Assembly: GCA_003693705.1 (NCBI GenBank)
Contig: RBZT01000435.1
Location: 186,001-250,000, forward strand
Direction: 5' to 3'
DNA: 64,000 bases
From: Polymyxa betae A26-41
Taxonomy: Eukaryota; Protista; Endomyxa: Phytomyxea
The notes below the pieces were generated by a model, which was given only the letters and a program-made list of their open reading frames with translations, ran no database searches and was not told where the DNA came from. Shown here piece after piece: positions 10,943 to 37,889 of the stretch. The translations under genes were made by a program, and so were the position numbers. Positions within the stretch are counted from its first letter, which is position 1. Every line of letters starts with the position of its first letter.

Positions 10943-11452
10943 GACGCCAAATCAGCAACTGAAACCAACGGGAGATTCCGATTTGATCGCCAGGAGCGTA
11001 CCCGCTGTCGAATTCCTGGCTTGAATTTCGGCGCCGACGACACCGCGACGTCAACTAATGACGCCAACTATGCAAAGAAAAATGAGGAATGTTACTATGA
11101 GCAAGTAACACTTTACAAGGAAGCATAAATCAGGTTGCGCTCCACGTCACCTTCAAATCCCGCTGTCTGTCTATCTGCAAGCTTCCTTCGGTTGCCATCA
11201 TTTACATTATGCCTAAAACCCCCAAATCTGTTGCTGATCTGTCATCTTCGACAACGATTTCGTTATGCCAGCTTTTATGAAAACATGATGCCAAAAATAC
11301 ATGGAAGAGAGAGTTGCAACGATGGTGCCAGAAACTATTTCTTGCTTGTATATAGACGATATCAGAATGAGTGTAATCATGGAAATTTGAAGTTTTTCAG
11401 ATAAGAATAGCTTGGTTTTCTGTAGCTATTTCTTCAGTGGGTTACCTTCAGA

Positions 11453-12440
11453 ATGAGAACCGCGGTGGCGGCGTTGTCGTCGCTAGAAGAGTCGTTGTTC
11501 GCTTCTCGCTCAGCCTTGAATCATGTTAAAGACATTGCCCAGACTCTGGCTTTGGCCAACGCTCAAATAACGCCAGCCATGATTCGGCCGCCCCGATATC
11601 GTCTAGTGCCGGTTTCAAAAGTGGCCCGGGCCAAGAAGCTCACCGAGATCAAGCATCACGAATACGTTGAGCTGGTCCTTAACGAGGCCTATAATCAGCT
11701 CGATGCATTAGGAGAGTTTATTCAAGATCATAGAGAAAGACTCGACTATCACCTGTTCTTGGTCCAGGAACGCTTTCAATCAGATCAACCCGAAATTGAA
11801 CAAAAGTCGCGCTTTTGCCGATCCTGTTGCTTGTTGTCATTAACTATATTGCAGATATCACAATGAGATCGTAATGCTAAAGCAGACAATCGACGCCAAG
11901 AAAGTGGAGTTGAATCGATTATACGATCTGAAAGAAGCCGATGGCAAATCGGATGTTCGAGAGCGTCTTCACGCAGCCGAGAAAACGCTTCAAGAGCTTC
12001 GTTGCGAATCTGCAGAGCGCCGCTCTCTAACGGAGCGTATTCAACAGCAAAAACAGTGCTTGCAACAGGTTCGAGATGGGAACGCCAAACAAATCGAGGC
12101 ATGTCGATCGCAACTGAATGAACTCCACAAACGAATCGAGGACAGCTCGATCGGAATCGATCAGCAATCGATTTTGAAGCAAATAACAGTCATATTACGG
12201 GTTTGTGGTGCTTCCAGCCATTCATTACGTGCTATTAAACGAATTCTCACAAACGGTTTCAGCTGCAGACTTTCTGATTTCGATGCCGAGTTCCCGAGTA
12301 CCTCAGAATCCGCTCAGCAAGCTTTGAAAGCAACTCTGGCCGAATTGGAAAGTTTTGGTCTTGTTCATATCTCTGACGATGGAGTTGTTGCTGTTGGACA
12401 ACTTAGATCGGAGTCAAAAAAACTTCTAATTAAAGTATAA
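11453..12440 (+). CDS. Spc19-like (DASH/Dam1 complex) N-terminus + coiled coil + possible winged helix
   Basis: Exons 11453-11805 and 11855-12440 joined by a 49-nt GT-AG intron. The N-terminus LEESL..ALNHVKDIAQTLALAN..MIRPPRYRLVPVSKVARAK resembles yeast Spc19 as I recall it. Confidence 0.55.
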
Positions 12441-12497
12441 TAAAATTTGTGCGAGTTTTTCTCGAAATATCTTTCAGATCGGTTGAGATCTTTTAAA

Positions 12498-14348
12498 ATG
12501 GGAACTTCTCCCAGGTCTGCACCGTTTCTGCTTCGTGACAAAATAAGGCTGTTCGACAGGTTCGCTTTGGACAATTCACCATTGAACACTTCACGTTCGG
12601 TTCGCGATGATCAGACCAAATCTGAAGTCGCCATGTTTCCTGGCTGGAAACACGTGCCATTGCCTCCACCACAACCTATCGTTCTACCAAGAAAATCCAA
12701 TAATGAGCCGATATCAGCATTCGGAATAAGCACAGATTCGGCCTTAACGCCTCGCATCGTCTTGAAGGACACCGATTTTGAACCGGTCGAAGATACGATC
12801 AAGAGGATAATGGATGAAGCGATCGAAGCAAATACGCATGCGTTAACGGCACGCTTTCAGGCAGTTCTCAAACAGCAATGTAGCTCAATCGAACAGAAAC
12901 ACCAAGCTCTTGCGGAAAAGTATAGACAGCGAGTTACGAAAGCGATGCTGACAGCCAAGACCAAGCTTGATCGCTGCAGAGCTGAGTTGACAGAGACCAA
13001 AACAGCTGTTCAAGCCGCAGTTAAAGTCTCTGCCGAGCGAGATGATTTGCGATCTAAGAATGAAGACCTGAGGGCGGAAATGGCTACTTTGACAGCTCAA
13101 ATGAAACAGGAGAAAGCAGCTATGAATACGAAAGTGAAATTTCTTCGAGCTCTTATAGCTGACAATGCACGCTCTAAAACAGACTCCAAAGCTCACCCGT
13201 CGCTTAAAAAGAACCCATCAGTACCAGAGGAACAAACTCCATGGACAGATCATACGAAATCTAACTCAGAGATCGCGAAACAATCTCAACAAATCCAATC
13301 ATTAAACCAACAGCTGCAAATACTTGAGCAGCAAAAGCGACAACAAAAACTCGAACAGATACAAAAGCAGCAACAACAACAGGAAACGAATCAAAGCGAA
13401 CAAATCCAGAGGCGACCAGATCAGGATGAAGCGATAGAGACTGATCCACAGGAAGAAGAGCAGAATGGAGTGACGAAGCTCATTGAAGAATTGGAAACGA
13501 AACAGGAAGAAATAACAAAGCTGACTAAGGAAAAGAAGCTATCAGAGCAAAGGAATAAAGTTCTGAAAGATGAGAACGCCAAGCTTAAAGAAGAGCTAAA
13601 CCAAGAGAAATCATTACTGAAATCGGAACGACAGCAACTGTCTCAGAAAATTGAACAAGCACAAGCCGAAATTGGAGGCCTGACAATGCAATTGTACACT
13701 GCTCGACTAAAAGCAGAAGAATTAACAGAGAAGGACATAGAGATCGAGACCGAACTGAAACTTATGCAGGAAAACTTTGCCACTATCGCTAGCGAGAAAG
13801 CAGAAATGGAGACATCTATGATGACCCGGATTGGATCCCTCAAAAATGAGCTGAAACGAACCAGAAGAGCGATTTGTATAAGATCGCTCCTATTCCAGGC
13901 TCATCTAAAAACTATTCATTCATCAGTGATGGTGTGTGACAAGATTGATGAGTATCTTGACGGGCAGCTGACCTGTAAACAATGCCTCGGCACGCTCAGG
14001 AAACCACAAGTTCTATATCCTTGTGGACATTCATTTTGCGAGCCGTGTATCGAGACTTTAAAAGATCCAGAAACAAAACGTCTAGTCTGCTGCGATTGCG
14101 ATTGCGCTTGTGAAGCAATCACAGTCACCAATTCAGCGTTGGATGCGATCATATCGCAATACAACTGGTGGAAAGTTTCTTTAGACGATCTGAGGAAGAA
14201 ATACGTTGGCGCTCAGGGCTCGCTAGCAGGGGAGAATAACAGTGATCCCGATTTCGCTGTTGCATTATCAGCATCGGCTAATAACACCAATCCAGTTCTA
14301 AGACCGTCATTAGCGACATTGAATCGACAGTATAGTAAGCAAAAATAA
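12498..14348 (+). CDS. Long coiled-coil protein with C-terminal C3HC4 RING finger (putative E3 ligase)
   Basis: Single ORF; E/K/Q-rich heptads; CKQC..PCGHSFCEPC..CCDC. Confidence 0.85.
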   Translation: MGTSPRSAPFLLRDKIRLFDRFALDNSPLNTSRSVRDDQTKSEVAMFPGWKHVPLPPPQPIVLPRKSNNEPISAFGISTDSALTPRIVLKDTDFEPVEDTIKRIMDEAIEANTHALTARFQAVLKQQCSSIEQKHQALAEKYRQRVTKAMLTAKTKLDRCRAELTETKTAVQAAVKVSAERDDLRSKNEDLRAEMATLTAQMKQEKAAMNTKVKFLRALIADNARSKTDSKAHPSLKKNPSVPEEQTPWTDHTKSNSEIAKQSQQIQSLNQQLQILEQQKRQQKLEQIQKQQQQQETNQSEQIQRRPDQDEAIETDPQEEEQNGVTKLIEELETKQEEITKLTKEKKLSEQRNKVLKDENAKLKEELNQEKSLLKSERQQLSQKIEQAQAEIGGLTMQLYTARLKAEELTEKDIEIETELKLMQENFATIASEKAEMETSMMTRIGSLKNELKRTRRAICIRSLLFQAHLKTIHSSVMVCDKIDEYLDGQLTCKQCLGTLRKPQVLYPCGHSFCEPCIETLKDPETKRLVCCDCDCACEAITVTNSALDAIISQYNWWKVSLDDLRKKYVGAQGSLAGENNSDPDFAVALSASANNTNPVLRPSLATLNRQYSKQK

Positions 14349-14512
14349 ATACGGCAGATAACGTCAACTATCAATATACCTCGTTGAGTTCGGTCGGAAT
14401 CACAACAACGGTAGGCTAGCATGACTTCTTTTGACGGTGGCACGCGCTCAGCCCAGTCATCTGTTGAGGGGCAGGTTTCCAAGCCACACATCATTTGCCA
14501 TTGAACGTAACG

Positions 14513-16434
14513 ATGAAGCAATTCGTCCGAAAGGTCAAGGACAACGTTCTTTTGTTCAGTGAGGGCGAACGCTTGGTTCGTGATGCTACATCCAATGAAC
14601 CATGGGGAGCATCAAGCACGTTGATGCACCAGATTGCTGATCTTACGTGCCAACGAGAGCATTATGAATCCGTCACGAATATGTTGTGGAAGCGTCTTAC
14701 TGATGTCACTTACCCACGACATGTTCTCAAGGTTTGGCATCGCGTGATTCGAGCATTTGTATTGAATGTTTGCGCAGGCTTGCCTATTGGTCGAGTTCCT
14801 ACTAAGAAACGGCAGTGAACGATTCGTTCATGATATGAAACAGAGGAGGCGCCGTTTTGAAGCCTTGAGCAAGTTCACAGACTATGCGGAGAATCCAGAA
14901 ATTGGAGCTGATGTTCGCTCTAAAACACTGCAACTTTTAACATTGCTTGATGATGATGCGAAAAGAAATGAGGAGCGTGTCACAGCCGCCCGAACAAAGG
15001 CGAAAATTCACGGCATGGGCAATACCTTTAACAGCCCGCATTTGCAATCGAGTGGCAGCCAACGCCGTGATGACTTGTCATCAAATAGCCGAGACAATGG
15101 GTTCCAAGAATCCCCAGCGTCGAATCGTGACAACCACAACCGGCAAAACAGTGACGACTCTTTCGACGAGAAGCTCAAAGCTGGTAAAACTGAGTCAAAA
15201 CCCAAAAGCAAAGAGAAAAAGAAAGCTGAGAAACAGCACGATTCCTTCGGGTTTGATGATGATCCTTTGGATGATGAGGATGTACCGAAACCCAGAGAGA
15301 ATGCGAAATCAATCAAGAAGGAAACCGATGAAACGGAACAATCTTCTCCTCTCTCCGAGAAGAAGAACAAAAAGTCAAAGGATAGTGAATCTAAGCCTAA
15401 AAAGGACAAGAAGAAGAAAAAGAAGGCAAACAAAGACGTTGACTCAGACGAGGTTGGCATCCCAGACCCTCCAAGCGGCCAAGAGGACGAGGGAGATTTT
15501 GTTGGTGCCGATCGGGCTAGTGGACTCGCCAACCAAATGAGCCAAATGTCGTTTGAAGCATCGTTCGATCTGATGGATAATTCTTCGAATCAAAAAGCTC
15601 AAAAGCAACCGAAACAGCCAAAACAGCAGCAACAAACACAGCAGCAGCAGCAGCCAGCGTCATTTGACTTCTTCTCATCGTTGGATAACCAGACAATTAG
15701 TCCAACTAGTGCTACGCAGAGCGAATGGTTCGATTCCAAGCCAACTGCAAAAACGCCAGAAATCAGCAACGCAAACGGTAATGCTTTCTTTGACGACTTC
15801 CAGAGCGCATCAACTATTCCTGCCAAAGCTAGCCCAAACCAATCCCCAGCACAAACCGCGAAGAAACCGGAAGATCTCTGGTCATCGCTCACTAACATCG
15901 ACAGTCTAACTGCTCCAAAATCTCAACAACCGGTGTTATCCAAAACGGTCTCAGCGCCGATGGCTCCTCAGCCAATGGGCCAGCAGCAGCCATACGACGC
16001 GTTCAGTATGCTTGGAGCGAATTCCAACCAAGGCCTCTACAATAGCAACAACCAAGCAGCTTTCAACAGCAACAATCAGCCTGCCTTTAACAGCAACAAT
16101 CAGCCTGCCTTCAACAGCAACAATGGTTTCTATAATGGCTATCCACAGGCACCCCAACAACAGGGACCGTATGGAGGGCCATATGGCCAGGTAGGCCGCG
16201 CCAACTTGACAAAAAGGGAAGCTGAATATGAGACAGACACCACCACAACAACCAATGTACCCCATGATGCCAAACAATCCTCACCAGCAACAATTCGTCA
16301 ATCCAATGCAGCAATCGAATTTCGGCGGCGCCCAGATTCCGATGCAGCAGCAAAAGCCGCAAGCGAACTTGAATATCCCAGATGCATTTGCTGTGTTCGG
16401 TGCCATGAACAAACGAACCACGGTGGGACCTTGA
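14513..16434 (+). CDS. Epsin-related ENTH-domain protein (2 introns)
   Basis: VRDATSNEPWGAS, MLWKRL, HVLKACLLVEFLLRNGSERF, GADVR; low-complexity tail with FDFF/FFDDF/DLW motifs. Confidence 0.9.
16041..16124 (+). repeat. Coding tandem repeat, 24 bp x ~3.5 (NSNNQ[A/P]AF)
   Basis: aacagcaacaatcagcctgcctt(t/c) units are directly visible inside the epsin tail. Confidence 0.9.
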
Positions 16435-18171: not shown

Positions 18172-19509
18172 TTAAAGTTCATCATGATCCGGTTCATCAT
18201 CGTCGTCATCATCAGACTTCGAAGCCCCGGCGTCGCTGCCCATTTTCTGGTACAGCTTGGTGATGATCGGGTTGACAATGGCTTCAAGAGATTCCTTCTG
18301 CTCGTTGATGTCGTCCTTTAAGGCTTCGGGATTGCTAGCCAACCAGGCAATCGTTTCATCGGCTGCCTTGTTGATGGCAGCGGCATCCTCATCACTGATG
18401 TGCTTGCCGAGCTTCTCCTTGTCCTTGATCTGGGTCTTGGTGTTGTAGGCGTAAGATTCAAGAGACACCTTGGCTTCGATCTGTTCCTTGGCAATCTTAT
18501 CGGCTTCAGCGAACTGCTCAGCGGCCCTGACCATCTCTTCGACTTCATCGGCGTTCAGCCTGGTCTGGTCAGCTGTAATAGTGATCGACTGCTTGTTGCC
18601 AGTTCCTTTGTCTGTGGCGCTAACTGAAAGAATCGAGTTGGCATCAACTTCAAAAATGACTTCAATTTGAGGAACACCACGAGGAGCAGGAGGAATGCCA
18701 GTTAACTCGAACTTGCCCAAAGGAACACAGTCCTTGGTCAGCTTACGTTCACCCTGGAAGACCTGGATACTGACTGCCGGTTGCTGATCAGCGTAGGTGG
18801 TGAAGACTTGAGTCTTCTTGGTCGGGACGACAGTGTTACGAGGAACGACAGAGGTCATGACACCACCGTAAGTTTCAATACCGAGCGTCAGAGGAGTGAC
18901 ATCTAACAACAGAATGTCGGCGCTGTCCTTGTGTCCACCCTGCAAAGGAAATCAGTAAACAAATATAAAAAAAAGAAAGGTGAACGTACCAAGATACCGG
19001 CTTGAACAGCAGCACCATAGGCAATAGCCTCATCAGGGTTGATGTCACGCTTTGGCTCCTTTCCGTCAAAGAACTCTTTCAGAAGGCTGATGACCTTGGG
19101 GATACGGGTAGAACCTCCGACCATGACAATTTCATTGACCTGCTTCTTGTCGACCTTGGCGTCTTTGAGAACCTTCTCGACTGGGGCGAGAGTCTTCTTG
19201 AACAGATTCTTGTTGAGTTCTTCGAATCTCGCTCGGCTCACCTTCTGGGTGAAGTCGATACCGTCGATCAGACTCTCAACATCGATGGTGGTCTCCGTAA
19301 CACTGGAAAGCATTCGCTTGGCCTTTTCACAGGCTCGGCGCAGCTTGGCTGTCGCACGAGGGTTTTTCAGAACCTCTTTGCCGTGGTTTTTCTTGAAGAT
19401 GTTGGCAGCCCATTTCATCAGGTTGTTGTCAAAATCTTGACCACCCAGGTGGGTATCACCGCTGGTAGCAGCGACTTCAAAAACTCCATCGTCGATAGTC
19501 AACAGGGAA

Positions 19510-19540
<31 letters not shown>

Positions 19541-20305
19541 CCAGGACCTTCTGCTCCTTTTCCAACTTCTTTTCCAGACCGTATGCAATAGCTGCGGCCG
19601 TGGGTTCGTTGATAATACGAAGAACGTTAAGACCAGCGATCTTTCCGGCATCCTTAGTAGCTTGACGTTGCTGATCCGTGAAATAGGCTGGAACAGTGAT
19701 GACGGCGTTCTTGACAGTCTGACCGAGGTAGGTCTCGGCAGTTTCCTTCATCTTGCCCAACACCATGGCAGAAATCTGTTCAGGAGCGAACTCCTGTTCA
19801 GTGTTGGCGTAGGTGACCTGGAAGTAGGGCTTGTTCTTCTTATTGACGATCTTGAAGGGATAAGTCTTCATATCCTTCTGGATTTCAGAATCATCGAAAG
19901 TGCGACCGATCATACGCTTGGCGTCGAAAACGGTGTTCGTCGGGTTAAGAGAGGCCTGCATCTGGATGAGCGATGCAGAGCAACATTCTTACAGGTACAA
20001 ACCTGGTTCTTCGCGGCATCACCGACAAATCGTTCATTGGAAGTGGGATCGAAACCAACCCAGGAAGGGGTGATACGGTTTCCTTGGTCGTTGGCGATAA
20101 TTTCGACACGACCGTTCTGGTAAACTCCCACGACTGAATAAGTGGTTCCAAGATCGATACCGACAGCGAGTCCATCTGTTGGAGGCTTAGACCCAAGATT
20201 GCACTAGCAAGAGATGCTCCTACCAGCTGGAGCATCATCTTCGACGGCAAATGCGCAGCCGAGGATGGCGAAGGCGAACAAGCCCAAGAATAACTTCGTC
20301 CTCAT
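18172..20305 (-). CDS. HSPA5: ER Hsp70 BiP/GRP78 (3 introns)
   Basis: Signal peptide [70 protein letters not shown]-terminal HDEL. Confidence 0.98.
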
Positions 20306-24493: not shown

Positions 24494-27400
24494 ATGCTGC
24501 AATGGCGCCGCTTCCAGTTTTTTGAGAAGCGGCTGCTAGAGCCGCCTGGAGCCGCCGCTGCCGCTGCAGAGGGACTCGCGATCAGTGCTCTATGCGCTGC
24601 ATCTGGACGGTCGAACCTTTTCCTGGGCGATGCGCTCGGCACGGTCCATGTGCTTGATCGTAGTTTGCATACCTCTGAATTTCAAGCTCATGATGCATTA
24701 ACTCATATTGCTAGAGTAAGCGAAATGCAATCTGCAGTTGGTTTTTTATAGCGATAATTTTCAACAGGTTACTGGAGAGAGCGTTCTCGTCACCCTCGGG
24801 CTTGATTTGGGCTCTGATTTGCCTCCCGCCACACTAAAATTCTGGAGGCTCGATGTCTCAGAATCCGATCTAGTTCTAGCGCAAGAGATCCGGGTTTTCT
24901 CTTCTCCAAAGCTGGAGCCAGCACCGATAACCTGTTTTGCTGTTCAGGTTTCAGAAAATGTCTGCTCCGCTGAGCTTTGTTATGACTGCTGCTTCTCTTA
25001 GGATGATCTTTCGCAAGTAGCCATAGGTCTTGGTAATGGAGGCATAATTCTGTTCTCTGGCGATCTGATTCGTGGACGATATAAAACATATCGCTTGCGG
25101 CAAAATGGTTCTTGTGTGACTTCAGGTTGCTGTTTGATTCCTCTGAATGCTGGCGGCTAAATCTGTATTAGTGCTGTTTATGTCTACTGCTGTCTTGTTT
25201 GTAACAACGACTTCTTCGGTGTCCTCTTTCCAGTTGATCACTGATGGACATCCCGAGACTGTGTTGGATCCCAATGAGGGATGCGATATCAACTGCAGGT
25301 ATGCTGCGACCTGATCTTCTCTACTATCTGATTTATCTGGCGTTTTTATCAGTTGTTTGTCTGATAGTGGATCCCTTGTTGTTGGCCGGCCTGATGGTGT
25401 ATTTTTCTTCGAGCATGATGATGTAGGTCCATGCTACGGGTTTGAAAGTAGTAAACGCTCTCTGCATTGGTTCCATTCTTATCTTGTTGTTGTTACTGAC
25501 AATAAGAACGTCGCAAATAAAAGCGATATCACGATATTCGATCTAAGGTATAGCTTCTGGAGCCGCATATGCTGTTTTTAATGGGAATTCAGGAATAAAT
25601 TTGTCGCTTTTTCTGGCGCCTTTGACACAATAGGGCATCTACTTATTGAATGGGGCTCTTTAATTATCTACCCGAAACATCCACCAAGAAAGGTACCTTT
25701 TGATGAACAGCTTGTTTTCACATTTTTGCTTATATCTGGCAGATTTTGGAGCTAACTGAATCTGATCTCACTACAAAAATGGAAATTCTCTTCAAACGCA
25801 ATCTGTTTCCGATTGCCATCAGTCTGGCCCAAAGCCAATCTTTGGATCAGTCCTACATAATGGAAATTGTTCAAAGATATGGAGACCATCTATACGATAA
25901 AGGTCGGAACTCATAATCTCCTTTCCATCAAAACTTCATGTCATACGGCTTAGGTGATTACTCGGGCGCCATGCGTGAGTATCTGGATACTGTTTCTCCA
26001 GGAATTGCTCACATTGAGCCTTCGTACGTCATCCGAAAATTTTTGGATGCTCGTTTGTCGGAACATTTGACTGCCTATTTGGAGGCACTTCATGCAAATT
26101 CGTGTGCAACAAAGCTGCATACGACATTGCTGTTAAATTGTTTCACACGGGCCAAGCTCGATGACAAGCTAACTGCGTTTCTGAACAATATATCCTCCAA
26201 CAAGTTTGATGTTGATAATGCAATTCAGGTATTCAACTGTTTGCGATGGTTTTCAAGGCTCATGAAATCTTTTTCTAGGTTTGCACTTCTGCTGGGTATT
26301 TGGAACATGCTTTGCAATTGGCGATGCAAAACAATCGAATTGAGGCCACCATCAAGATATTAACGCTGATGTGCGATTATCCTGCTGCTGTTAAGTTTAT
26401 TGCTGGTTTACCCTTCGAAGAAGCCGAGTCATGCCTGAAAATGTATGGACACCTGTTGTTCGAAGAGGCACCCAAGGAAACCACCACGCTTCTGATTCGC
26501 TTGTGCACTGAATTTTCTGTCCAATCGGGCGAATCCCGACGAGCCAGTCCAGAAGAATTCATTCACCTCTTTGTCGGAAAGCCATCCGCCCTGCAATCGT
26601 TTCTTGAAACTGTTGTAGCCCAAGTAATCCTGTTTTTTAAGCTATCTCAGTTTTAATCGTTTTCAGGCCCCCAACTCGTCCTCGACCGTCTATACGACTT
26701 TACTGGAGCTTTATCTTCGCGATAAAACTCATTGCGAAGATAAAATTCTGTGTTTACTTGCTACTCAACAAACCAAGTAAGTATGGACTTTTTATGGCTA
26801 TTTAAACCGACCTATTGAGCCTTTTGTTAGATACGATCCAGAACTGGCTCTAGTTCTGGCGAAGCGGTATGGATTTACAGCAGGAATTTTATTCCTGTAT
26901 CAGAAGTTAAAGCTGTACATGGACATTCTAGAGCATCACATTCATGTAGATTTTTGCGTTCTCTCCTTTAGGAAGACATTTAACTGCAATTCAGAATGAA
27001 AACGCTGATGCTATAATTGAAGCATGTCGAACCTATGGCCAAGTTGAGCCGAATTTATGGCTTCGGGCTCTTTCATTTTTCGCTTCGAGCACCCGTCATC
27101 TCGAAAGGCCGGAAAATATTCAGCAAGTCCTAAAAAGTTACAGTTTCGATGTCGCTCTCCAAAGTATCTTATTTATTCCTTTAGATGTGCAAGAATCGAG
27201 GCTGCTACCTCCGTTGATGGTTGTCCAAATTCTGTCGAAAAACGAATCTATACCTTTATCGATTGTAAAGGAATTTTTGTTGAAGTCTCTCACATATGAT
27301 CAAGTCGGAACTTTCGCGCTTTCCTTTCTGCAGATATTTTACTTAACGTCTCATAGTCTGTCTTGAAGGAAGATCGCAGGCAAATTGAAGAATACAGGGC

Positions 27401-34272: not shown

Positions 34273-34722
34273 TTATCCGATAAATGTTAAGACGAAGATG
34301 TGCAAGAGAATGTTGCAGAAAACCCATTCGATAAATGCCCGTTCGTTAGAAACGCCCTTGTCTTTGCGATGGTCTCCAAATAGATGAGGTGATGCAGTTT
34401 GGAATCTTAATGAAGCTGTGAACACGAAACTGGCAACGCAGGATATGAATCCAGATAGGAACGCGTTGAACGGGAAAGACCCAGCTAATAGGCAGTAGAG
34501 ACCTTGAAGCAATCCAGTGGCAACAGTAAATAATAAGTAAGCGTCAATAAGCCGAAGGCGACGAGGGGTGTTCTTCATATAGTCTTTCAGCACTTCATGA
34601 TAGATCGAGACGAAAGTTTGAGACGATACAAGTGACTTTGGCTTGCCTTGTTCAGTCGGTGAGCCGACAGCCTGGTTAGATCGACCAGAATTCTTCAGAG
34701 CCGCCGCTGACGATTTACCCAT
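34273..34722 (-). CDS. DAD1: Oligosaccharyltransferase subunit DAD1/OST2
   Basis: TPRRLRLIDAYL, GSFPFNAFLSGFISCVASFV..SLRFQ, ERAF, LHIFVLTFIG. Confidence 0.96.
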   Translation of the reverse strand: MGKSSAAALKNSGRSNQAVGSPTEQGKPKSLVSSQTFVSIYHEVLKDYMKNTPRRLRLIDAYLLFTVATGLLQGLYCLLAGSFPFNAFLSGFISCVASFVFTASLRFQTASPHLFGDHRKDKGVSNERAFIEWVFCNILLHIFVLTFIG

Positions 34723-35484
34723 GACAAAGAGAGATAACAAATCTGAAGAATGGGTTGGAATTAACTACGAGTCTGAGAGGTCCCGCTACACTCTCTCTGT
34801 TTATACTTTATAGACGACATTTCTATGCACAAACAACACGAATGTTACATGACTGAAAAATCTACGATAGTGGGCAGAGTCGAGGAAGAAGTTTGTGGAG
34901 AACAATAGCATGTATTAGGAAAGTTTATAATGTTCGAAGATAGAGCCGCGCCTAAACAAACAACCAATCAGCACTGGAATGATAATGTTGAAGGAAGAAA
35001 AGAGGATAAAGATTTGTCAGTAAGGGACATTTCAATTCATATGAAGAGCTCAAGGGAGACAACTAGAAGTCGACCTCAAGCTCTTCTAGAATAGTGGTGG
35101 TGCATATCCGATATCATCACACAAATCCATAAAACAGCCTCAAACAGTATTACCGACCTGAAGTCAGAGACCAACACGACAGTACCGCCAGATACTAGCT
35201 GACGACTGATGAGAAATGGAATGAAGCCGATCCTCGACGAGTCGACCGAGGCAGACTCCAGATCCGCCATTCAGCCCGAAATCCGCAATTTTAATATTAG
35301 CGCACGGGCCATAGTTTGAACATCACAAAAAATCACCACCATGATAGAACGATCTCAACCTATAAAAATATCAGTAAATATGAATTCTTTGCTAATTCTA
35401 ACAACGCTCCATATAACATGAATGAAATCGCGGAAGGATTTTAAAAATGTGAAAATATATATCGAATGTTAAAGCAATGAAGAA

Positions 35485-36186
35485 ATGACATACATTGAGA
35501 AAGCAATGAATAACTATAGAAAGGGCAAGAAGCTCAGTGTCAAGAGGATTACTGAGGAAATTCTGAAACCAATGATTGATATCAAGAGCAAGGCGGTCTA
35601 TCTAAGCAAACTGATGAGAATTTAAGCAAATACTAGACGATCCAGAACTTGAAAGACTGAAACTCCCAGCAGAAATGGCACAGCAAGTTTGGGATGAACC
35701 GCAGAGGAGACTTAGTGAAAAGGAGAATATCAGTTTCAAACAAGAGAAGATAAATGAACTCATGGAGCTGAATATCTTCAACGACCTCGTCATATTCAGG
35801 ACGCCGAGAGAACGAACTGCTAAACCTACAACCACATGAGACGAACGACGAGAATGCCTTCTTATTCGACCGACAGCAAAAGCAGAGAGAGACGATTAAA
35901 TACGTCGTATCATTATACAAGATCCAATATCCAGAAATCAATAATCTGGTTGAACAAGATGCAACAGAAACCCCCAAAATCCACAAGGACACGATGCTTA
36001 AGCGCTTAAGATCCCGCCTGAAGATGGTTTTAGGAAATGAGGAGATCGTGATCCATAATCTACGAATGCTTTTTAATGTACGAGGAGAGTGACAAGGTCA
36101 TGCCCTTCCATACCGTCGCCATGCGCCTCCTAGGTCATGAACGCCCTGACACGACCATTCATTAGAATCGTCTCCTCATCACTTGA
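35485..36186 (+). pseudogene. Telomere resolvase (protelomerase)-like tyrosine recombinase, frameshifted
   Basis: Stitched over 3 frameshifts (~35620, ~35795, ~36076): MTYIEKAM..SKAVYLSKLMR/EFKQILDDPELERLKLPAEMAQQVWDEPQRRLSEKENISF../SGRRENELL..FLFDRQQKQR..IHNLRMLF/MYEES..MRLLGHERPDTTIH*NRLLIT. TAG at 36163-36165 sits at the catalytic Tyr position. Confidence 0.8.
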
Positions 36187-36190
36187 CCTA

Positions 36191-36592
36191 TTATAATACA
36201 CGATTGATATTATTGCCTTGTCTATCAACCCAGCGCAAATCGCTCACCCTATTGTCACGCCGATCTCTATTGATGTGATCGACCTCCTTTAATCGATGTA
36301 GATTGGGGATGTAGTGCAAACGATGAATATAATGATTTCTATTCCTCCCATTCTTATAGAGCGTGATTCGCTTATAACCGTCCTTAAGTATGAAAGGTCT
36401 AATGGGCGACCACCATATTTTGAGCAGATTGTGCACGAATTGAGTAGTATCATAACAAAATACGACATATCCGGAAGATTCACAGATTAGTCGCCCAGAT
36501 ATGTCTTGATAATCCTTAAAATCACCCAGCAGTAGACCATATCGATAGAAACAAAGCAAACAGCAGTGTCGATAATCTACTATGGGTAACAA
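36191..36592 (-). CDS. HNH endonuclease (NUMOD4/HNH_3 type), probably decayed
   Basis: DGYKRITLYKNG..HYIHRL-HYIPN..EVDHINRDRRDNRVSDLRWVDRQGNNINR. The usual VAxx after HRL is missing and there is no ATG start. Confidence 0.85.
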   Translation of the reverse strand: MLPIVDYRHCCLLCFYRYGLLLGDFKDYQDISGRLICESSGYVVFCYDTTQFVHNLLKIWWSPIRPFILKDGYKRITLYKNGRNRNHYIHRLHYIPNLHRLKEVDHINRDRRDNRVSDLRWVDRQGNNINRVL

Positions 36593-36615
36593 TTCAGAAA
36601 AAACAGCTAACCATC

Positions 36616-36801
36616 ATGAACAGGAACGACAATGGTCATAGGGTTCAGGTTTCGTTTCTATCTCGAAATAGGATAGATCGAACGTTTGCTAAACTTGATG
36701 ATGCCATTGAGTTCCGAGACGCGATCCAGAGAACGATTGATATAACGAAGAGATATGCCAAGTATTGGTGGATCTTTCTAGAAAGGATATGGAACACATA
36801 G
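36616..36801 (+). CDS. Small AP2-like DNA-binding domain ORF
   Basis: HRVQVSF..RIDRTFAKLDDAIEFRDAI resembles the beta-strand/helix pattern of viral and phage AP2 domains. Confidence 0.45.
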   Translation: MNRNDNGHRVQVSFLSRNRIDRTFAKLDDAIEFRDAIQRTIDITKRYAKYWWIFLERIWNT

Positions 36802-37031: not shown

Positions 37032-37889
37032 ATGTGTGCTGATTATAGTCTCGCTTCATACTGGGAGAAGCGCTATGAGAAGTATTTGAGGTTATTTATC
37101 TTATTGGGTGCAATCGCTAAAGAAATGCAGAGAGCCGGAGACTTTCGAATGGTACCAGAACTATGCCACCTTGAAACCGTTCATTTTTCAGTATATCACC
37201 AAAACCCAGCCTGCTGCCGTCCTTCATGTCGGCTGTGGGAACTCTCGTACAGCAGATGAAGTAACGGAAGTTCCATTGGTTAACGAATGCTGTTCGTAGG
37301 GTTTGGAGAGGGATTATATCGAGATGGTGTTACACACGTGGTTAATATCGACTCATGCAGAGCTATCATTGATATCATGAACAATAAGCATAAGCTGTTA
37401 AGCGAAATGAAATGTAAAGTCCAGACAGAAGGATTATTGCACGTGTTAACGTTCTGGTAGATCTAACCATGGATGTTCGACATCTCAAATTTGACGAAAT
37501 GTCATTCAATTTGGTTCTCGACAAAGGTGTTGTTGCCCCGTGTGTTCTATAAGAACAAAACCTGACTTGATATTAGGCACGTTAGACTGCTTTGTCTGTG
37601 GAGAGAACGCCAAGTTCGAAGTAAACTCTATGTTGACAGAAGCTTATAGAGTACTCAAGCATGGTGAGTGCTTAACGTCTGTTTTGTCATTATCTTATAT
37701 TATGAAGATGGCGTTTATATTTGTATCTCGTATGGAACGCCGGCCACCCGTGAGCCATATTTTAACCTAATCTCGGGATGGACATTAGAACAGACAATGA
37801 CAGTTGAGAAGCCGAAGCAAGCGTACGAAGTGGACGTCACCAACCAATTCCATTATATTTACGTTTTGAGGAAAGCTCAACCACAATAA
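37032..37889 (+). CDS. EEF1AKMT4/METTL13-N-like SAM-dependent methyltransferase (multi-exon)
   Basis: DYSLASYWEKRY, FEWYQNY, VLHVGCGNS, MDVRHL, DKGTLD, EAYRVLK.G.YICISYG.P..R, HYIYVLRK. Confidence 0.9.

Follow-up and report, generated by a model that had tools for sequence, protein, structure and literature searches.

Telomere resolvases (protelomerases) such as TelA of Agrobacterium (PDB 4dwp/4e10), TelN of phage N15 and ResT of Borrelia (8vs5) form hairpin ends from a replicated junction, as described in the available text of PMC13685816. Together with TelK of phage phiKO2 (2v6e), they are the closest described systems to the gene reported here. According to the available text of PMC3558466, the active site of TelA consists of R255, K286, Y363, R366, H394 and Y405, and the third of these residues, which is Tyr in both ResT and TelA, is Lys in TelN and PY54.

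Enzymes of the same kind are also encoded by viruses of eukaryotes, namely by EhV-86 (Q4A292), by the phaeoviruses EsV-1 and FsV-158, and by the EVEs of Ectocarpus. The phaeovirus copies are integrated in the nuclear chromosomes of Ectocarpus, with a conserved telomere resolvase and fold-back reads at a telRL-like site (available text of PMC13236599 and PMC2373305). In the case of polinton-like viruses, terminal palindromes have been proposed to form hairpins without such an enzyme (bioRxiv 10.64898/2026.07.28.741278), and the tyrosine recombinases (YRs) of these viruses are treated as integrases (10.64898/2026.06.19.733378; 10.64898/2026.07.28.741278, both as available). The words "protelomerase" and "resolvase" have 0 occurrences in the main texts of these two preprints, the supplements of which may list genes under "YR". 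We found no literature that pairs a telomere resolvase or protelomerase with a polinton.

Here, we analysed 64,000 nucleotides of contig RBZT01000435.1 of Polymyxa betae A26-41 (the window), in which an earlier note had placed a telomere resolvase fossil in a eukaryotic nuclear genome. The relic proved to be real, but telomere resolvases in eukaryotic nuclei are not new in themselves, the phaeovirus EVEs being a precedent (PMC13236599, in its available text). Those EVEs are intact proviruses of 300-400 kb in brown algae and have a separate integrase, whereas the present locus is an orphan scrap of 1.3 kb from a smaller family. With TelA, TelK, TelN and ResT its family shares the linker helix, the Arg-Lys-x-Arg-His-Tyr order, RxxY and LGH..HY; the differences are the eukaryotic setting, the dead state of this copy and the His at the third active-site position of the family.

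Layout of the Relic Gene

In the six-frame translation, the relic gene was found as four pieces at 35485-36186, which lie in three frames and make up one dead gene (Table 1). All the motifs listed in the earlier note were present where it had put them. YLSKLM starts at 35599, EFKQIL at 35618 and LERLKLPAEM at 35648, and these are followed in the catalytic region by SGRRENELL (35796), FLFDRQQKQR (35859) and HNLRMLF (36054). The sequence LLGHERPDTTIH at 36127-36162 runs directly into a TAG at 36163-36165, and a TGA at 36184-36186 closes the frame. The TAG takes the position at which the homologs have the catalytic Tyr nucleophile, just as the note had proposed. The constellation GRRxxE ... LGH-x8-[Y/stop] occurs once in the window and was seen in 1 of 200 shuffles.

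Table 1. Features of the resolvase locus and of the genes on its two sides (window coordinates).
Feature	Position	Strand	Evidence
Relic piece A: N-terminal, core-binding-like helical region with the start codon	35485..35616	+	P0010 alignment
Relic piece B: last part of the N-terminal domain, then the long linker helix characteristic of protelomerases	35618..35788	+	tblastn with P0004/P0005, 43-45%; TelN linker helix alignment
Relic piece C: catalytic domain carrying Arg (first), Lys, His and Arg (second); preceding helix deleted	35796..36074	+	phmmer homologs, E 3.7e-22 to 6.5e-8; hhalign to TelN
Relic piece D: LGH motif; stop at position of Tyr nucleophile; frame end at 36186	36076..36186	+	P0003 across break C/D, 53% identity on piece D
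HNH relic 1 (endonuclease), convergent with the resolvase relic; 5' end undefined	36191..36400	-	Pfam HNH_3, 27.0 bits (cut-off 24.8); PHROG HNH, E 1e-15
HNH relic 2 (endonuclease), pointing away from relic 1; stop codon in frame at 36517-36519	36448..36801	+	Pfam HNH_3, 27.2 bits; PHROG 59, E 6.9e-5
Left flank: host gene of DAD1/OST2 family, outside the island	34273..34722	-	Pfam DAD, E 6.9e-38
Right flank: host gene with several candidate GT..AG introns of 40-60 nt, outside the island	37032..37889	+	exon frames

The four segments had been joined in that note across three frameshifts. Their unity stands, as homologs bridge the breaks, but instead of simple shifts there are deletions, 2, 23 and 8 nt long. 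Each of the three is a +1 step between frames, and the lengths were obtained by comparing the relic with its homologs between anchor residues at breaks A/B, B/C and C/D, respectively. The 23-nt deletion at break B/C has taken out the complete helix in front of the first catalytic Arg, and the 8-nt loss at break C/D falls in the region of the RxxY Tyr. Introns at the breaks were rejected, because no GT..AG intron fits any of them. Programmed frameshifting was rejected as well: the sequence contexts of the three breaks have nothing in common, and since the deletions have taken away the helix and the RxxY Tyr region, simple slippage would give no read-through. With three deletions and one stop, the gene lacks an intact reading frame. 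Judged from its sequence, the relic is a pseudogene of a compact telomere-resolvase-like family, which would give no working enzyme and have no present enzymatic function.

The 1.3-kb Island

The relic belongs to an island of 1.3 kb (35485-36801), which consists of the resolvase relic and two HNH relics and has a host gene on either side. The earlier note had found the resolvase relic but overlooked the two adjoining HNH relics, the first of which starts 5 nt beyond it. A fold-back origin of the HNH pair was rejected because the two are only 30% identical to each other. We take the C-terminal extension of HNH relic 2, which has no Pfam match, to resemble an AP2-like DNA-binding tail. The flanking host genes have clean reading frames. 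From its motifs, the right one is presumably a methyltransferase; its single exons gave no match in Pfam. The GC content of the island is 41%, compared with 46% in the window, and its 4-mer usage is unremarkable (rank 0.33).

At the locus, no capsid, packaging ATPase, replication or polymerase genes were found beside the resolvase and the two HNH relics, and as an endogenous polinton-like virus it would be a fragment at most. Between 28.3 and 39.6 kb of the window, palindromes with arms of at least 10 were absent, and there was no telRL-like palindrome near the relic. The search for a terminal inverted repeat or a target-site duplication gave only chance-level matches of 8-9 nt. A target palindrome need not survive in a fragment, and terminal repeats or a duplication could have been erased by decay.

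Homologs of the Relic

The single pieces of the relic gave no informative match in Pfam, PHROGs, the PDB or phage records, and the pairwise comparison of piece C alone with TelN gave an E value of 0.67. As no single piece had a useful match, the case for the relic was built on homologs. A phmmer search with piece C against 1.84 billion representative proteins returned 5 matches at E<=0.001. Four of them are true homologs (41-49% identity), and the fifth, P0002, was discarded as a beta-propeller repeat artefact.

Independent metagenomic homologs with 41-46% identity bridge every break of the relic. Residues 3-83 of P0010 align with residues 1-81 of the read-through across break A/B with 41% identity; break B/C is bridged by P0004 and P0005, and break C/D by P0003, which keeps an intact LGH..HY end. 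Six further family members, four of them full length (259-270 aa), were recovered by a profile search among 7995 scored candidates. A profile made from the homologs only gave 143.8 bits on the read-through with X at the breaks, covering positions 11-252 of 254, and the best score on shuffled read-throughs was 8.8 (500 shuffles, 499 reported). Longer or fused forms of the family were absent at E<=0.01 among 7996 scored, a result of little weight.

The five closest homologs are all partial, and their contigs are 1.3-5.2 kb long; it may be mainly through fossils or error-prone reads that the clade of the relic is known. Two of the three close homologs tested are frameshifted. When read in a shifted frame, the tail of P0004 matches the homolog at 31 of 32 positions (shuffle maximum 16) and that of P0005 at 9 of 10 (shuffle maximum 6). 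In the case of P0001, such a reading gave 6 of 12 matches compared with a shuffle mean of 6.0, so there is no support for it. The frameshifted sequences fit a clade met mainly as endogenous fossils, though sequencing error may also account for them. One full-length member of the family, P0009 (270 aa), has altered active-site motifs and is possibly, from its sequence, a catalytically dead DNA-binding derivative.

Family Assignment

The protelomerase reference alignment contained 13 annotated phage and plasmid proteins, and that of the integrases contained 7. These 13 protelomerases have 342-727 aa, compared with about 260 aa in the family described here; identity to TelA, TelK, TelN and ResT is 16-18%. 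The read-through scored 18.4 bits with the protelomerase profile and 4.5 bits with the integrase profile (shuffle maxima 8.3 and 7.4). The protelomerase profile was ahead in 10 of 11 family sequences, the exception being P0008 (7.5 vs 8.2). With hhalign, the clade of the relic was aligned to protelomerases with a Prob of 96.3 (E 2e-9) over 178 columns, including the linker helix; the alignment to integrases reached a Prob of 30.6 (E 5e-4). The echo of the TelN linker helix reported in the earlier note lies within this alignment, and the outcome that the note had set against its own reading, integrases as the best profile match, did not occur.

That note had also proposed a comparison of PF16684 with PF00589, which came out clearly for two intact relatives but not for the relic itself. 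P0006 (31.6 bits) and P0007 (33.5 bits) exceed the PF16684 cut-off of 27; they are two of the four full-length relatives, of which P0011 scored 23.1 bits and P0009 gave no match. The relic pieces match neither model. The closest fragments score about equally on the two, all below cut-off (18.9-20.9 bits with PF16684), and P0005 is slightly better on PF00589. Among closest fragments and intact relatives together, the best PF00589 score was 19.9 bits (cut-off 27.1), and no DIRS, Crypton or Starship-type families appeared among their Pfam matches. When the family profile was compared with PDB sequences, XerA ranked first (4.7e-5), followed by HP1 integrase and ResT at the same level (0.005). The Atlas matches of piece C were integrase-like at 0.87 and serve as a lead only. 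P0007 had no match among phages and plasmids.

In the phylogenetic tree, the clade of the relic had support of 95/98, its grouping with the compact intact members 87/87, and the separation of this group from bacterial and phage protelomerases 82/80. The tree is unrooted and long-branched, and because of the domain-cutting rule 5 of the 13 protelomerases and 4 of the 7 integrases dropped out; with 9 of 20 reference rows missing, it does not decide the family assignment. The data support the relic gene as a member of a compact family (about 260 aa) that falls, within the tyrosine-recombinase fold, on the side of the telomere resolvases.

Fold and Active Site

The fold evidence comes from P0007, an intact relative outside the relic's own clade, for which the model of P0003, built from 3 sequences, reached a pLDDT of only 48. 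In pairwise alignment, P0007 is 27% identical to the relic over residues 8-112 (about 105 residues, E 1e-4). Its AlphaFold model (from 11 sequences) has a pLDDT of 87. In a search of the PDB with this model, the first 7 matches were TelA and TelK (E 4e-9 to 7e-8), and XerH followed at 1e-4. VIA-align gave a Z of 18.7 for TelA (249 aligned, rmsd 7.1), 17.5 for TelK, 13.9 for ResT (rmsd 3.9) and 11.6 for XerA. The best match among viral models was the telomere resolvase of EhV-86 (E 2.9e-9), the model of which has 378 aa and is 16% identical to P0007. The Xer and phage integrases (PF00589; XerA 5hxy, XerH 5jk0, lambda Int) have the catalytic fold and the HxLR motif in common with the family but rank lower, with a fold Z of 11.6 and below in addition to their low profile Prob. 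The structural comparison suggested in the earlier note thus placed TelA, TelK and ResT above all integrases.

The fold common to P0007 and the described protelomerases (TelA, TelK, TelN and ResT) extends over the whole length of P0007, and residues 4-255 align onto residues 127-414 of TelA. The protelomerase architecture of a helical N-domain, a linker helix and a catalytic domain was found in the P0007 model and was extended to the relic by alignment. The model is without the muzzle, the stirrup or the N-terminal extra domain of larger protelomerases; according to the available text of PMC3558466, muzzle and stirrup are absent from TelA too.

The six active-site residues (R, K, K/Y/H, R, H, Y) are present in the family, and the relic keeps five of them, with the stop at the Tyr. 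At the third position, 4 of the 5 family sequences have His, which is also the residue of integrases. RxxY was found in all five family sequences tested, at a place where XerA and HP1 have RHxF.

A Relative in a Viral Context

The sole relative found with DNA context is L006, a locus from metagenome contigs that is 45% identical to P0007 and was covered over 17.4 of the 25.6 kb of its contig. No further relatives were found in viral contigs and genome contigs; the pattern loci L002-L005 in viral contigs were chance matches. Next to an intact family member, L006 encodes an adenain-like protease (a weak match, E 0.003), a GIY-YIG protein, a DNA methylase and a phospholipase A2. Two paralogous large ORFs at 11219-12604 and 13840-15864 (-) (E 7e-40), with no sequence match in Pfam or the PDB, are candidate multiple capsid proteins. 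The protease, phospholipase, methylase and paralogous ORFs resemble polinton-like groups (bioRxiv 10.64898/2026.06.19.733378, as available), and the gene content of L006 reads as that of a small polinton-like virus. None of its genes matched the window, and no palindromic target was evident in the 17.4 kb covered. At 3945-4763 of L006, an AT-rich element of ~55 nt recurs in inverted orientation ahead of several short ORFs and is possibly a viral promoter motif.

The first Atlas match of P0007 (0.99) was a cluster of 261 aa with PF16684 on 45% of its members, 90% of which are from viruses; the commonest phylum is Preplasmiviricota (phylum known for 10). The third match was a cluster of 300 aa (0.98), with Nucleocytoviricota as the most frequent phylum.

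Origin of the Locus

We consider it likely that the dead compact telomere-resolvase-like gene reached the host chromosome together with the two HNH genes on a 1.3-kb piece of a DNA virus, and that this virus was most likely small and polinton-like. A compact protelomerase-type gene from a virus or hairpin-ended replicon had been proposed in the earlier note, and this origin is supported by the profiles, the fold of P0007 and the virus-linked relative L006. Its ancestor was most likely a minimal telomere resolvase; we infer the hairpin activity, the hairpin ends and the virus type. By analogy with TelA, TelN and ResT, the intact enzyme would have bound as a dimer to the palindromic junction of the replicated viral genome, and its Tyr nucleophile would have cut both strands there. 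Rejoining of each strand to itself would then have left linear genomes that end in covalently closed hairpins. The island may be a captured fragment or the remainder of a larger insertion, and after entry it would have decayed neutrally by deletion. This suggests a past infection of this lineage by a small DNA virus, probably with hairpin-ended chromosomes.

Polinton-like viruses often use tyrosine recombinases for integration, and a gene with a protelomerase fold may also have served as the virus's integrase, the island being the leftover of an integrated provirus. The His at the third active-site position, the first rank of XerA in the sequence-profile search of the PDB and the near-equal PF00589 and PF16684 scores of the closest fragments agree with this role. 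Two frameshifted sequences among three tested are what many integrated copies would leave, and polinton-like viruses carry YR integrases (available text of bioRxiv 10.64898/2026.06.19.733378). We nevertheless regard the integrase role as unlikely in view of the wide margin from integrases in both fold and profile, the RxxY in place of RHxF and the TelN-like linker helix. A giant-virus (Nucleocytoviricota) donor of the same enzyme activity, or a donor in the form of a linear hairpin plasmid, is rather improbable too: the length of about 260 aa agrees with the Preplasmiviricota cluster, and the only relative with context lies on a 25.6-kb contig of small-virus gene content. Such a donor would be consistent with the telomere resolvases of EhV-86 and phaeoviruses, with the 300-aa Nucleocytoviricota cluster, with HNH genes not being diagnostic of a donor and with a window that has no capsid or polymerase gene.

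The three +1 steps would also be expected of a functional gene read by programmed frameshifting, or of an assembly artefact (a chimera or an error-ridden contaminant). Both are highly improbable, given that the 23- and 8-nt losses removed conserved coding residues, that a stop replaces the nucleophile and that the break contexts share no sequence. Moreover, the adjacent host genes have clean frames and HNH relic 2 is broken as well.

Starting from the preferred reading, a polinton-like viral scrap with a dead resolvase gene, we tentatively propose a wider one. A small polinton-like (Preplasmiviricota) lineage might keep hairpin genomes by means of a minimal protelomerase of 260 aa, in the manner of N15, which would replace protein-primed ends. 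The fossil and its frameshifted metagenomic kin might then be traces of repeated entry into nuclei within one host group, and would thereby point to a host for the lineage. We found no published account of a minimal protelomerase of small polinton-like viruses that survives as a fossil in a host nucleus, and such an enzyme would apparently represent an undescribed end-replication strategy. Polinton-like viruses that lack a protein-primed polymerase have no settled answer to end replication, and a compact protelomerase family would supply one. An enzyme of 260 aa, much smaller than TelN (631 aa) and ResT (449 aa), would be informative for the mechanism and for the production of closed linear DNA. 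Resolvases may have been mis-assigned as "tyrosine recombinase integrases" in some viruses. The value of the dead locus is that it records a host and gives access to the family.

Other Features of the Window

To the left of the relic, at 35167-35322 (-), a short protein-kinase DFG-like stretch was noticed, which has no Pfam match and is probably due to chance. The longest near-perfect hairpin of the window, with 14-nt arms and a 7-nt loop, lies at 26706-26744 and overlaps a second hairpin; it is 9 kb from the relic, and no link between them was shown. An ORF at 18984-20123 (+), antisense to HSP70, has a Pfam NAD-GH match and is not a gene; we take the match to be the usual HSP70 shadow frame. 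The window points to a compact eukaryotic host with introns of 40-60 nt, and its genes include HSP70/BiP-like, sulfite oxidase, MatE, Menorin, PLAA and WDR55 genes.
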